Shown one piece after another: positions 115-4,987 of a stretch of 4,987 bases of DNA. The stretch lies in IMG/VR virus record IMGVR_UViG_2713896783_000037. One strand, given 5' to 3'. The notes under the pieces are model-generated. The model did no database searches. It worked only from the letters and a program-made list of their open reading frames with translations, and had not been told where the DNA came from. The number at the start of each line of letters is the position of its first letter. Position 1 is the first letter of the stretch. Both the position numbers and the translations under genes were made by a program. The stretch comes from a virus. Lineage: Duplodnaviria > Heunggongvirae > Uroviricota > Caudoviricetes.

Positions 115-190
115 GCCGATATAGCTCAGTTGGTAGAGCAGCGCATTCGTAATGCGAAGGTCGTAGGTTCGACTCCTATTATCGGCACCA
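115..190 (+). tRNA. thrW: tRNA-Thr, anticodon CGU
   Basis: 76-nt cloverleaf: acceptor stem GCCGATA/TATCGGC, D-loop AGCTCAGTTGGTAGAGC, anticodon loop containing CGT, T-arm GGTTCGACTCC, encoded 3' CCA. Matches my recollection of enterobacterial thrW. Confidence 0.9.
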
Positions 191-204
191 TTTAAATCAA
201 TAAG

Positions 205-1179
205 TTACACATCATTAGTACCTTCCTTATTTTTTGACTGGGACAAATTTGGGACCGATGGGTTCAGGATCGAGTCTATTTGCCGTGCGTGTTCGGTAAG
301 GTGATTAGGTGCAAGGTGAGCATATCGACGAACCATTTCGATAGACTCCCAGCCTCCCATTTCCTGTAACACTGACAACGGGACTCCGGCTTGAACCAGC
401 CAACTTGCCCAGGTGTGTCTCAAGTCGTGAAATCTGAAATCATCAATACCAGCCCGTCTCAGCGCCGCTTTCCAGGCTGTGTTTGCGTCATACCGCATCT
501 TCCTTACTGTTGGCGCTTTCGTTCCGTCTGGTTTGGTACAGCTTTCCTTGTACACAAATACCCAACGGTGATGATTACCGATTTGTTTTTTCAATACGCG
601 ACATGCAGTATCATTCAGCGCAACGCCAATTGCGCGGTTTGATTTACTCTCTTCCGGGTTTATCCATGCCACCCGGCGCTGCATATCTATTTGTTGCCAT
701 TCAAGGTTGATGATGTTCGAGCGTCTTAAGCCTGTTGCCAGTGCAAATTCAACAACAGACTTTAATGGCTCCGGACATTCATCAATCAGCCTTTGTGCTT
801 CATGGGGCTCCAGCCAGCGGAGCCGTTTATTCTTTGGTTGAGGCACTTTAATAATTGGTGCCTTATCGAGCATTTTCCATTCACGCTCTGCGGCTCTTAG
901 CAGGGCCTTTATAAATGAAAGATGCGTAGCCTTCGTTGCAACGGACGCTGGTTTTGGCGTGTATTCTGGAACAGGTTTCCCTTTTTTTCTGCATGCTTCT
1001 GCCCTGAGTTTCCAGTTTTCCTCATGACGCCGGTTCGTCATTTTCTGCATTGCTGAATAAATTTTTGATTCAGTAATGTCTCTTAGTTGCATTCCTGCGA
1101 AATGTTGAAGCCAGAATCCGATCTGCTTTCCATTGAGCCTGTTTCTCTGCGCGACGTTCGCGGCGGCGTGTTTGTGCAT
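205..1179 (-). CDS. int: Tyrosine recombinase (phage integrase), 5'-truncated; catalytic domain intact
   Basis: Catalytic signature residues are present: R in ATGLRRSN, H-x-x-R in [11 protein letters not shown] in VRRYAHL. The stop is 15 bp from the tRNA 3' end. Integrase-derived sequence begins only at about 1122; the first 19 codons of the ORF ([19 protein letters not shown]) are lambda N coding DNA read in the +1 frame, and an in-frame stop lies at 1201-1203. The N-terminal (arm-binding) region of a full-length integrase of this kind therefore appears to be missing. Confidence 0.8.
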
Positions 1180-1183
1180 CCAT
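1124..1183 (-). pseudogene. N: Antiterminator N, 5' fragment (first 20 codons only)
   Basis: ATG at 1183-1181 is preceded by AGGAGAATCCAG and encodes [20 protein letters not shown], the arginine-rich boxB-binding N-terminus of lambda N. After codon 20 the sequence switches to integrase DNA and the N frame runs on as [17 protein letters not shown] to a stop at 1070. Confidence 0.8.
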
Positions 1184-1554: not shown

Positions 1555-1944
1555 TTAGTGAGTTGCACCTATTAATTTTAAAATAAATACAATTGGTGTT
1601 TTTCGAGTTTTTCTTAACTCTTCATGCAGCTCCGTTCTCAGAATATATGATTTTTCGAGTTTGAAATTCTTGCGACCAGGCGTCTTATTGCCAGGCTCAG
1701 GAAGTGGAAGGCGTGTTTGAATGTCGAGTGGTGGACAGTCATAGAAGTAAATTCTATAAAGCTCAAGCGGTTCCCTACGTTCTTGTGATTGATGTTTTCC
1801 ATTAAGATGGGAAAGAACCATTGACCATATTACTTTCATTATGCATTGCGCAGTCAGTTCATGCTCGGCGAAGTGTTTACGATGCGTAGCATGAACACGC
1901 TGCATGAAAAAACCCGCATCAATTAAAATTGCTGCTTTCTTCAT
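1555..1944 (-). CDS. Hypothetical protein (129 aa, basic) in the rexA/rexB position of the immunity region
   Basis: The only ORF in the six-frame track between OL and cI. ATG at 1944-1942 with a weak GGGA Shine-Dalgarno. AT-rich relative to flanking lambda-like DNA. No family recognised; the N-terminal MKKAAILIDAGFF resembles the first strand-Asp motif of PIN/NYN-type folds, but this is a weak impression only. The last ~16 codons lie in DNA homologous to lambda's non-coding region right of OL. Confidence 0.5.
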   Translation of the reverse strand: MKKAAILIDAGFFMQRVHATHRKHFAEHELTAQCIMKVIWSMVLSHLNGKHQSQERREPLELYRIYFYDCPPLDIQTRLPLPEPGNKTPGRKNFKLEKSYILRTELHEELRKTRKTPIVFILKLIGATH

Positions 1945-2071: not shown

Positions 2072-2788
<717 letters not shown>

Positions 2789-2796
2789 TTAAATCT

Positions 2797-2860
2797 ATCA
2801 CCGCAAGGGATAAATATCTAACACCGCGCGTGTTGACTACTTTACCTCTGGCGGTGATAA
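2797..2860. promoter_or_regulatory. Right operator OR3-OR2-OR1 with divergent promoters PRM (leftward) and PR (rightward)
   Basis: OR3 2797-2813 TATCACCGCAAGGGATA, OR2 2819-2835 TAACACCGCGCGTGTTG, OR1 2843-2859 TACCTCTGGCGGTGATA. PR -35 TTGACT 2832-2837 and -10 GATAAT 2855-2860. cro Shine-Dalgarno TAAGGAGG at 2873-2880. Confidence 0.92.
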
Positions 2861-2876
2861 TGGTTGCATGTACTAA

Positions 2877-3530: not shown

Positions 3531-4329
3531 ATGACAAATACAGCAAAAATACTCAACTTCGGCAGAGGTAACTTTGCCGGACAGGAGCGTAATGTGGCAG
3601 ATCTCGATGATGGTTACGCCAGACTATCAAATATGCTGCTTGAGGCTTATTCGGGCGCAGATCTGACCAAGCGACAGTTTAAAGTGCTGCTTGCCATTCT
3701 GCGTAAAACCTATGGNNNNNNNNNNNNNNNNNNNNNNNNNNNNNNNNNNNNNNNNNNNNNNNNNNATGAATATTATCAAGCAGCAAGGCGGCATGTTTGG
3801 ACCAAATAAAAACATCTCAGAATGGTGTATCCCTCAAAACGAGGGAAAATCCCCTAAAACGAGGGATAAAACATCCCTCAAATTGGGGGATTGCTATCCC
3901 TCAAATTGGGGGATTGCTATCCCTCAAAACAGGGGGACACAAAAGACACTATTACAAAAGAAAAAAGAAANNNNNNNNNNNNNNNNNNNNNNNNNNNNNN
4001 NNNNNNNNNNNNNNNNNNNNGCAGAGTGGATGTTTGACATGGTGAAGACCATCGCGCCATCAGCCAGAAAACCGAATTTTGCTGGGTGGGCTAACGATAT
4101 CCGCCTGATGCGTGAACGTGACGGACGTAACCACCGCGATATGTGTGTGCTTTTCCGCTGGGCCTGCCAGGACAACTTCTGGTCCGGTAACGTGCTGAGT
4201 CCGGCCAAACTCCGCGACAAGTGGACCCAGCTCGAAATCAACCGTAACAAGCAACAGGCAGGCNTGANAGCCAGCAAACCAAAACTCGACCTGACAAACA
4301 CNGACTGGATTTACGGGGTGGATNTATGA
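3531..4329 (+). CDS. O: Replication initiator O (lambda-type), interrupted by assembly gaps
   Basis: N-terminus MTNTAKILNFGRGNFAGQERNVADLDDGYARLSNMLLEAYSGADLTKRQFKVLLAILRKTYG. Middle segment MNIIKQQGGMFGPNKNISEWCIPQNEGKSPKTRDKTSLKLGDCYPS. C-terminal domain AEWMFDMVKTIAPSARKPNFAGWANDIRLMRERDGRNHRDMCVLFRWACQDNFWSGNVLSPAKLRDKW...DWIYGVD, with the ATGA stop/start overlap onto the P start. Two 50-N runs (3716-3765, 3971-4020), isolated Ns at 4264, 4268, 4302 and 4324, and a 23-bp duplication make frame continuity undeterminable. Confidence 0.85.
3716..3765. other. Assembly gap (50 N) inside gene O
   Basis: Run of 50 N. The corresponding lambda segment is about 99 bp by my recollection, so the gap length looks arbitrary. 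Confidence 0.95.
3829..3937 (+). repeat. Origin iterons (O-binding sites) inside gene O; five copies, followed by an A-rich tract
   Basis: Five inverted-repeat iterons of the form ATCCCTCAAA...GGGGGAT, starting at 3829, 3849, 3873, 3896 and 3919 (spacing 20-24 bp), then CAAAAGACACTATTACAAAAGAAAAAAGAAA running into the gap. Lambda has four as I recall; the third here is present twice. Confidence 0.85.
3874..3919 (+). repeat. Perfect 23-bp tandem duplication (TCCCTCAAATTGGGGGATTGCTA x2) within the origin iterons
   Basis: 3874-3896 and 3897-3919 are identical. 23 is not a multiple of 3, so the O reading frame is shifted after this point relative to lambda (KLGDCYPS then NWGIAIPQNRGTQKTLLQKKKE instead of KQGDTKDTITKEKRK). 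Confidence 0.8.
3971..4020. other. Assembly gap (50 N) inside gene O, just after the origin A-rich tract
   Basis: Run of 50 N. The corresponding lambda segment is about 124 bp by my recollection, so the gap length looks arbitrary. Confidence 0.95.
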
Positions 4330-4637
4330 AAAACATCGCCGCACAGATGGTTAACTTTGACCGTGAGCAGATGCGTCGGATCGCCAACATCGATAACCAG
4401 GACATGACGATATCGGTCTGGGTCTTTCCTGATACTGATATTTCAGATGTATCGCGTGAGTTAATTGCGGCAATTAAACAGGGGTATCTAACAGTAAAAG
4501 CCGCCGGGGTATGGGCGGGGGGCATTGAAACACCTTCGGTGGAAACTCCATCGGAAGGCTCTAAATTTTTTGGTTTTGATATGGATAACGAATTCATCAG
4601 TGGTTTTGATGTAGGGGCATGGGGAGTATTACTCTGA
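4326..4637 (+). CDS. Chimeric ORF: first 21 codons of replication protein P fused to 82 codons of unrelated coding sequence
   Basis: [21 protein letters not shown] matches the lambda P N-terminus (nucleotide identity through 4389). From 4390 the sequence is unrelated ([45 protein letters not shown]...[11 protein letters not shown]). The frame stays open for 82 codons and ends in a TGATG stop/start overlap with the next ORF, suggesting the 3' end of a real gene. Confidence 0.55.
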
Positions 4638-4987
4638 TGGCGAAAAATGACTTTAAAGCGTTTGCAACTGATCGAAATGCCAATGTTATGTCGCAGGAGG
4701 AATGGGAAGCGTTGCCTGCGCTTATATCCGGATTTACAGCAGGGAAAGCATCCAGTGCGCAAGTCAATAAGGTTATTCGGCAGGCCAGCTTTATTGCTGC
4801 AGCTCTGGCCCAGTTTGTAAGTGATAAAACGCAACGGGATGTGCTTGATAATGGTGATCTGCCCGGTTTTGTTGAATTGCTGGGATCGGGGTTTGCTGTT
4901 GAATACCTGAGCCGCAAGAATCCGTTTGGCGATATCAAATCGGACGGCACGGTGAAAACGGCTCTTCAAAACCTTGGTTTGGGAGAA
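4637..4987 (+). CDS. Hypothetical protein, 5' part only (runs off window); possibly a phage tail-fibre N-terminal region
   Basis: ATG at 4637 overlaps the upstream stop (TGATG). Product [82 protein letters not shown]... has protein-like composition, whereas the opposite-strand ORF looks like antisense junk. The tail-fibre assignment is a pattern-level impression only. Confidence 0.55.

Follow-up and report, generated by a model that had tools for sequence, protein, structure and literature searches.

Chimeric reading frame joining the start of lambda P to the end of a baseplate wedge gene in the cryptic prophage Sp1 of Escherichia coli O157:H7

The chimeric reading frame and its place in the prophage

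A stretch of 4,987 nucleotides (nt) recorded as a virus of the Caudoviricetes (IMG/VR record IMGVR_UViG_2713896783_000037; in the following the window) carries an open reading frame (ORF) of 103 amino acids directly behind a lambda-type O gene. The window is the left half of the cryptic prophage that is named Sp1 in strain Sakai and CP-933H in EDL933 (PMC3355084; PMC2669165), located at the tRNA-Thr gene thrW of E. coli O157:H7. At thrW, the O157:H7 chromosomes, including that of EDL933, were 99.6-100% identical to the window. The 103-residue ORF is a chimera of the first 64 nt of lambda P and the 3' end of a gene for a DUF2612 / baseplate wedge protein. With a probability of about 0.75, we regard it as the scar of one homology-free deletion inside a hybrid thrW prophage, which would have left a chimeric pseudogene. 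A deletion-fusion pseudogene in a known degraded prophage is already known in kind and in locus, and the ORF is an ordinary gene remnant, not a new protein.

The tRNA gene, which was the sole match in an Rfam scan of the window, is followed by a truncated integrase gene and by cI, PR, cro and cII, which form an immunity region of the lambda type. Behind these come lambda O and its origin, the 103-residue ORF and the start of a tail-fibre gene (Table 1). The 47-nt repeat of the thrW 3' end was found at positions 5001 and 15587 of locus L001, and the two copies, 10,586 bp apart, bound the whole element. Beyond position 4987, where the initial annotation had pointed to a possible tail-gene cluster and the other attachment site, tail-fibre genes, chaperone genes, an invertase gene and this second repeat were indeed present. 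The element has the properties of a defective lambdoid prophage: direct tRNA attachment-site repeats lie at both ends, int, N and P are truncated, O is frameshifted, and Q and the lysis, head and tail genes are missing.

Table 1. Features of the window and related loci (window positions unless a locus is named; a slash marks the breakpoint)
Feature	Position	Strand	Basis or remark
tRNA-Thr(CGU) thrW	115-190	+	ARAGORN and Rfam; 3' 47 nt are the left attachment repeat of the prophage
Truncated thrW-type integrase, without about 60 N-terminal codons	205-1122	-	Pfam Phage_integrase; PGAP 'missing N-terminus'
Lambda N', first 20 codons + 1 nt	1123-1183	-	BLAST to lambda and direct sequence reading
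Intact lambda-type cI repressor	2072-2785	-	ORF list
PR promoter TTGACT-17-GATAAT	2833-2861	+	Promoter scan, L001 7689-7717; upstream of cro, cII, O, P' and tail-fibre genes
Lambda O, frameshifted, with origin of 5 iterons	3531-4329	+	Alignment to lambda O; PGAP 'frameshifted'
Chimeric ORF, 103 amino acids	4326-4637	+	ORF list; apparently ECs0279 / Z0313, annotated 'replication protein'
P', first 64 nt of lambda P (21 codons + 1 base)	4326-4389	+	64/64 identity; P start overlaps O stop (ATGA)
3' end of DUF2612 / baseplate wedge gene, residues 145 (part)-226 + stop	4390-4637	+	
Recurrent nucleotide-precise deletion endpoint GGGGTAT/CTAACAGTAAAAG, between 4485 and 4488	4481-4500	+	
Tail-fibre gene, 5' constant part (264 amino acids in EDL933)	4637-4987	+	PHROG tail-fibre families, PGAP; start coupled to chimeric ORF stop
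Left crossover site (pix-like) of the Pin-invertible segment, cut by window end	4969-4987	+	
Joints at the recurrent endpoint	L005 8061, L006 8118, L013 1496, L014 6118, L015 6124, L016 6115		

The two parts of the chimeric ORF were assigned by comparison with their parents. The initial annotation had set the end of the nucleotide identity to lambda P at 4389/4390, and the alignment bears this out, since 64 of 64 positions are identical up to the joint and the identity past it is at chance level. From 4390 to the window end, the DNA was 97.7% identical to phage vB_EcoM-611R5, and from 4390 to 4700 it was 100% identical to a prophage of E. coli strain C1. In both of these, the matching DNA is the 3' end of a 226-amino-acid gene that is followed by a tail-fibre gene. 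The joint lies between A4389, which comes from P, and T4390, which comes from the partner. No microhomology was found there, as the flanking strings have no base in common, and the motif ATCGAT (4389-4394), to which attention had been drawn earlier, is present and arises from the joint itself. P had been described as cut after codon 21; the cut is there, but strictly it follows codon 21 plus one base, and as a hybrid, codon 22 (ATC, Ile) takes its first base from lambda AAC and the other two from partner GTC (Val145). Residues 23-103 of the fusion are residues 146-226 of the partner, with a register offset of 369 nt that keeps them in frame.

The claim that the frame stays open and runs into a TGATG overlap with the next ORF also held, with the stop TGA at 4635-4637 and the ATG at 4637-4639. 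This overlap with the tail-fibre gene is native in the donor phages and was seen in vB_EcoM-611R5, in the strain C1 prophage and in further relatives. The open frame behind the joint is not remarkable, because it is the partner's own frame, and the prior for an in-frame joint is 1/3. On the opposite strand, an ORF of 243 amino acids covers the joint (4238-4969). Since it had no PHROG match, and since homologous genes account for the whole plus strand, it was treated as a shadow ORF.

Two runs of 50 Ns (3716-3765 and 3971-4020) and four single Ns (4264, 4268, 4302 and 4324) lie in the window near the joint, which could point to an artefact of assembly or sequencing. In EDL933, the runs correspond to 100 and 124 real bases and the single Ns to G, C, T and T. 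When a 121-nt probe spanning the joint was compared with 5426 complete E. coli genomes, it was contiguous in 204 of them; elsewhere it split exactly at 4389/4390 into genes called 'replication protein P' and genes called 'DUF2612 / baseplate wedge 1'. The identical joint in 204 complete genomes from many laboratories and sequencing platforms refutes an artefact, to which we give practically no credence. Since the N runs are shorter than the real DNA, window coordinates past 3765 are compressed relative to EDL933, and reading frames of O derived from the window are not meaningful.

Sp1 has been described as a highly degraded lambdoid prophage that contains cI and cro, is defective in integrase and replication and lacks morphogenesis and lysis genes (PMC2669165). 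O157 lineages I and I/II carry the ORFs of this region, ECs0272-ECs0280, which lineage II lacks, and the gene list names ECs0277 and ECs0279 'replication protein' and ECs0280 tail fibre (PMC1890555). Judged by the order in this locus-tag list, the chimeric ORF is apparently ECs0279 / Z0313. These accounts of Sp1/CP-933H contain neither the joint at base resolution nor the wedge-gene partner nor the iteron duplication in O.

The wedge-gene partner and its names in the databases

The C-terminus of the chimeric ORF had been ascribed to a structural gene, possibly from a tail or baseplate module, for which a full-length partner might exist in related prophages. Such a partner was found in the 226-amino-acid gene of two myoviruses with lambdoid organisation, vB_EcoM-611R5 and the strain C1 prophage, and its assignment agrees with the proposal. 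The full-length protein matched Pfam DUF2612 (PF11041) with an E-value of 2.5e-47 (161.6 bits), and the gene belongs to PHROG 587. When the full-length family profile was compared with solved structures, it was related to the baseplate wedge proteins gp89 of 9zd7 (1.4e-8), gp17 of XM1 (7kh1; 1.8e-6) and gp23 of Pam3 (7yfz; 1.7e-4), of which the XM1 and Pam3 proteins are distant relatives. In every intact relative examined, the gene lies between baseplate J and the tail-fibre gene. An AlphaFold model of the full-length wedge protein, made from an alignment of 31 sequences, had a predicted local distance difference test score (pLDDT) of 41 and was unusable.

The fusion itself stays below the Pfam gathering score for DUF2612 (20.3 against 23.5 bits). 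Its DNA is 97-100% identical to that of the wedge proteins of vB_EcoM-611R5 and the C1 prophage over residues 146-226 and has the same stop-start overlap onto the tail-fibre gene stf, but the first 145 residues of the wedge protein are missing from it, and baseplate J, the gene upstream, is deleted. The joint, at partner residue 145, falls inside the stretch 14-164 of the wedge profile that aligned to XM1 gp17 and is therefore not at a domain border. A C-terminal module common to the wedge protein and YmfQ was considered and rejected, as the sequences are unrelated.

The fusion is identical to lambda P (PF06992) over the first 64 nt and in the ATGA by which the start overlaps the stop of O, and it occupies the position of P downstream of O and the origin. 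Residues 22-233 of P are missing, including everything for DnaB binding. The region of lambda P needed for this binding is reportedly described by Mallory et al. 1990, which PMC2669165 cites. Pfam Phage_lambda_P (PF06992) gave no match to the 103-residue ORF at E <= 0.01, and searches of NCBIfam with the fusion, the partner, the fibre and the 129-residue ORF beside cI returned no family. In agreement with the initial annotation, residues 22-103 are not of the P family.

The names in the databases suggest otherwise. The Prokaryotic Genome Annotation Pipeline (PGAP) splits the chimeric ORF into two 'phage replication protein' pseudogene pieces, and in RefSeq it labels L001 9357-9617 (window 4377-4637) 'phage replication protein, missing N-terminus'. 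Several further database proteins with the same C-terminus are called 'replication protein P'. These labels would favour a divergent but intact replication protein in residues 22-103. In about 300 other genomes, this DNA carries the annotation DUF2612 / baseplate wedge, the ORF had no match to Phage_lambda_P or to an NCBIfam model, and the profile fits solved baseplate wedge proteins. In addition, the proteins named 'replication protein P' (P0007, P0017, P0029 and P0030) have unrelated N-termini (holin, portal, baseplate J and others) and only the wedge C-terminus in common, which shows that the name was propagated from the O157 fusion. A replication protein at this place is thus refuted, and its probability is negligible. 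The RefSeq name on the baseplate-derived part is an annotation error, and the wrong labels 'replication protein' and 'replication protein P', in RefSeq and older, have reached unrelated chimeras.

Lesions of the early region and the tail-fibre cassette

A second deletion joint was found at 1122/1123, where N is cut after 61 nt and joined to the integrase gene without its N-terminus. The remaining integrase is 54% identical to residues 81-377 of a 384-amino-acid integrase. The 324-residue 'integrase' ORF at 205-1179 extends into N and starts in an alternative frame of it. The position of the cut in N (61 nt) is curiously near that of the cut in P (64 nt). With N truncated, antitermination at tR1 is lost.

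The lesion in O (L001 8387-9309) is a 23-bp tandem duplication of the iteron unit ATCCCTCAAATTGGGGGATTGCT at window 3883-3905 / 3906-3928. It results in five iterons and in a frameshift after about codon 141, by which O loses its C-terminal half. O is thus inactivated independently of the truncation of P. The initial annotation had stated that without P the origin module cannot load the host helicase. This is in accordance with the published replication defect of Sp1, whose early genes were induced by mitomycin C while its DNA was not amplified (PMC2669165), and it can now be refined, because frameshifted O and truncated P are two independent reasons why Sp1 cannot replicate.

The repressor gene cI is intact, and its PGAP protein WP_001274756.1 is identical to the cI of a lambdoid prophage of O121:H19. 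The PR region is 98.4% identical to lambda. The mitomycin C induction of the early genes fits the intact cI and PR. Beside cI, in the place of rexAB, a 129-residue ORF on the minus strand (window 1555-1944) is a truncated NYN-domain gene; about 577 bp more are present at this ORF in the O121:H19 prophage and in other lambdoid prophages that share its cI.

In EDL933, the downstream part of the element holds the fibre gene together with two chaperone genes and an alternative fibre C-terminus, as well as pinE, a GIY-YIG gene and a composite right end before the second thrW repeat. PinE matched the PHROG DNA invertase family at 2.9e-97. Two 20-nt inverted repeats, 95% complementary and 1.83 kb apart (L001 9949-9968 and 11799-11818), flank the alternative fibre C-termini and chaperone genes, and the serine invertase gene is adjacent, which is the arrangement of a segment of the Din family (Pin/Gin/Cin). 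The 1.83-kb segment was found in opposite orientations in EDL933 and in O157 strain 9000, showing that PinE-mediated inversion has occurred within the O157 lineage. Because the segment inverts, the fibre gene is named differently between genomes in RefSeq. A DUF2612-type baseplate gene occurs at one place per O157 genome and there is no other copy.

The cassette resembles those of e14 (K-12), Mu (G) and P1 (C), where alternative tail-fibre and chaperone genes also lie between inverted crossover sites next to a Pin-family invertase. Like e14, Sp1 is a degraded lambdoid element in which most late genes are gone and the fibre/chaperone pair is kept. The two differ in integration site and immunity region, and upstream of the fibre Sp1 has DUF2612 whereas e14/SfV-type phages have YmfQ. 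Details of the e14 cryptic prophage are reportedly given by Mehta et al. 2004.

Origin of the joint and a recurrent endpoint in the wedge gene

According to the deletion that we favour, the ancestor would have been a mosaic temperate phage at thrW with a lambda-type immunity and replication region and a DUF2612-type myovirus late region. Illegitimate, homology-free recombination would have fused P after its base 64 to wedge codon 145, from the second base of that codon on. About 25-30 kb would have been lost: the remainder of P, ren, the nin region and Q, the lysis and terminase genes, the genes for head and tail, and most of those for the baseplate. At the right end of the prophage, the cassette of tail-fibre, chaperone and Pin-invertase genes would have been left. 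A large deletion that removed P, the late regulator, lysis and head genes had been suggested in the initial annotation; the missing set of genes was confirmed, and the single step is what we infer.

An intact order of this kind was found in the prophage of strain C1, which runs from int through cI, cro, cII, replication, nin, Q, lysis, terminase, head, sheath, baseplate J and DUF2612 to the fibre gene. There, about 28 kb with the replication, nin, Q, lysis, head and tail genes lie between the equivalents of the two breakpoints. Further, a sibling remnant was observed (contig L013 and the complete genome of isolate 2014-01-7375) in which lambda O-P-ren' and this fibre cassette meet at another breakpoint. 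Its O-P part is 99.5% identical to the O157 module. The simplest explanation of a near-identical O-P module that was joined independently to this cassette is a hybrid ancestor common to both remnants.

In the read-set contig of this sibling (L013 1222-1644), the ren'-wedge' joint is out of frame and is followed by a G run that is one base shorter and restores the wedge frame and the TGATG overlap. The complete genome L017, which has the same ren'-wedge' joint, does not show the shorter G run. The difference could be a homopolymer sequencing error or real variation.

Several observations weigh against the single deletion. The exact ancestor, combining the thrW integrase, lambda O/P and DUF2612 late genes, was not found when the immunity region, the right end, the integrase and the DUF2612 gene were used as probes; the searches returned mosaic relatives alone, and the single step is accordingly not proven. 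The right end of Sp1 is composite. Between the GIY-YIG and the AraC-family genes (L001 13445-13784), it contains the last 62 nt of the tRNA-Ser gene serU and 278 bp of the K-12 serU-yodB spacer, and an IS3 remnant follows the AraC-family gene. Strain E7476 has an SfV/e14-like prophage at thrW with both ends of Sp1 but another baseplate gene. The serU fragment and its neighbours, shared with this prophage, indicate a composite history of the right arm, and the common ends suggest that part of the structure could come from recombination between elements. Finally, the inertness of the 103-residue peptide, which belongs to this reading, is itself something that we infer.

The joint might instead have been formed by recombination of two elements, a lambda-like thrW prophage and a neighbouring, tandem or imported myovirus remnant with the fibre cassette. 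This would agree with the blunt joint without microhomology, and with the serU attR-like fragment and its flanking spacer at the right end, which record a history at another locus. In E7476, a different prophage lies between the integrase and the right end (pinE, GIY-YIG, AraC, IS3') known from Sp1, and the DUF2612 late module occurs with at least 3 different early modules. On the other hand, single prophages exist in which a lambdoid early region is followed by the order baseplate J - DUF2612 - stf, the independent joint of the sibling points to a common hybrid ancestor, and one pair of thrW repeats bounds the element. We consider recombination of two elements unlikely, but keep it as a rival of the single deletion.

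The single deletion would leave a product without either parental function. The 21 residues of P would not recruit DnaB, and the 81 wedge residues, which start in the middle of the wedge domain with the N-terminal two thirds gone, would not build a baseplate. The fusion retains the ribosome-binding site and start of P as well as the overlap of the wedge stop with the fibre start. Once the intact cI is cleaved in the SOS response, transcripts from PR that pass tR1 would be expected to run through O' and P' into the fibre genes, and ribosomes would still be handed on to these genes by the retained overlap. SOS-inducible transcription of Sp1 would then enter a fibre cassette whose segment orientation varies between isolates. 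From PR to the end of tfa, the first chaperone gene, no terminator-like site was predicted on the plus strand.

It was considered whether the in-frame fusion has been kept because it is useful, either by leading translation from the SOS-inducible PR operon into the fibre cassette or by an action of the peptide on the fibre. Amid an otherwise degraded prophage, the intact state of cI, PR, stf, both tfa genes and pinE would fit such a use, as would the opposite orientations of the segment in two O157 isolates, the mitomycin C response of the early genes, the preserved native TGATG coupling and the lack of predicted terminator-like sites behind PR. However, an in-frame joint arises by chance in one case of three, the truncation of N abolishes antitermination at tR1, and O157 has no other DUF2612-type baseplate to which the fibre could attach. 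In a lineage as clonal as O157, purifying selection cannot be recognised, and in the sibling of isolate 2014-01-7375 the annotated ren' ORF ends about 100 nt before the annotated fibre start and no coupling is apparent. No observation requires the fusion to be functional, and a useful fusion seems very improbable to us. Only a little less improbable is the broader proposal that Sp1 is a domesticated unit, in which the cI/PR switch drives the invertible fibre cassette through P'::wedge' and fibre cassettes have repeatedly been kept by deletions at an exact endpoint. If this were true, Sp1 would be an SOS-inducible fibre reservoir or a donor for incoming phages, and the repeated preservation of such cassettes in E. 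coli and Enterobacter by deletions ending at this one nucleotide would point to an undescribed mechanism of specific cleavage or template switching. The joint in Sp1 matters little in itself; as a deletion scar, it is a record at base resolution of how a well-studied O157:H7 cryptic prophage lost its replication and late functions.

The exact endpoint, which recurs in other chimeras, is the sole item here that could lead to new biology. When the 81 wedge residues were used for a search, many other short chimeras were found. In an automatic screen, 7 of 24 chimeras with an unrelated N-terminus started their wedge match exactly at Tyr177 (Bonferroni-corrected binomial probability about 1e-6). 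The corresponding endpoint GGGGTAT/CTNACAGTAAAAGC (GGGGTAT/CTNACAG) lies 96 nt downstream of the P'::wedge' joint, and the window's own joint is not at this place. By inspection, at least 13 distinct N-termini are fused at the endpoint, among them holin, portal, a capsid-decoration-like protein, baseplate J, lambda Ren and early-left-arm sequences. Six independent joints were confirmed at the DNA level (Table 1), one of them in Enterobacter kobei, where the cassette is diverged and no invertase is nearby. Each native left-hand partner gene tested had TAT or TAC at the joint. One fixed end and one variable end that share 2-5 nt suggest a site-specific break with a protected right end, or polymerase stalling followed by a template switch.

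Several candidate causes were rejected. The true crossover sites of Pin lie about 470 nt further on and are unlike the endpoint sequence, and the Enterobacter example has no invertase in its vicinity. Chi sites are absent from the prophage, and a module shared with other proteins was ruled out. In complete genomes, endpoint events are rare, and no more than 4 of 544 matching records contain one. Directly to the right of the endpoint is a GC-rich hairpin, and two further chimeras were joined at a second, weaker GGGGTAT site 24 nt further on.

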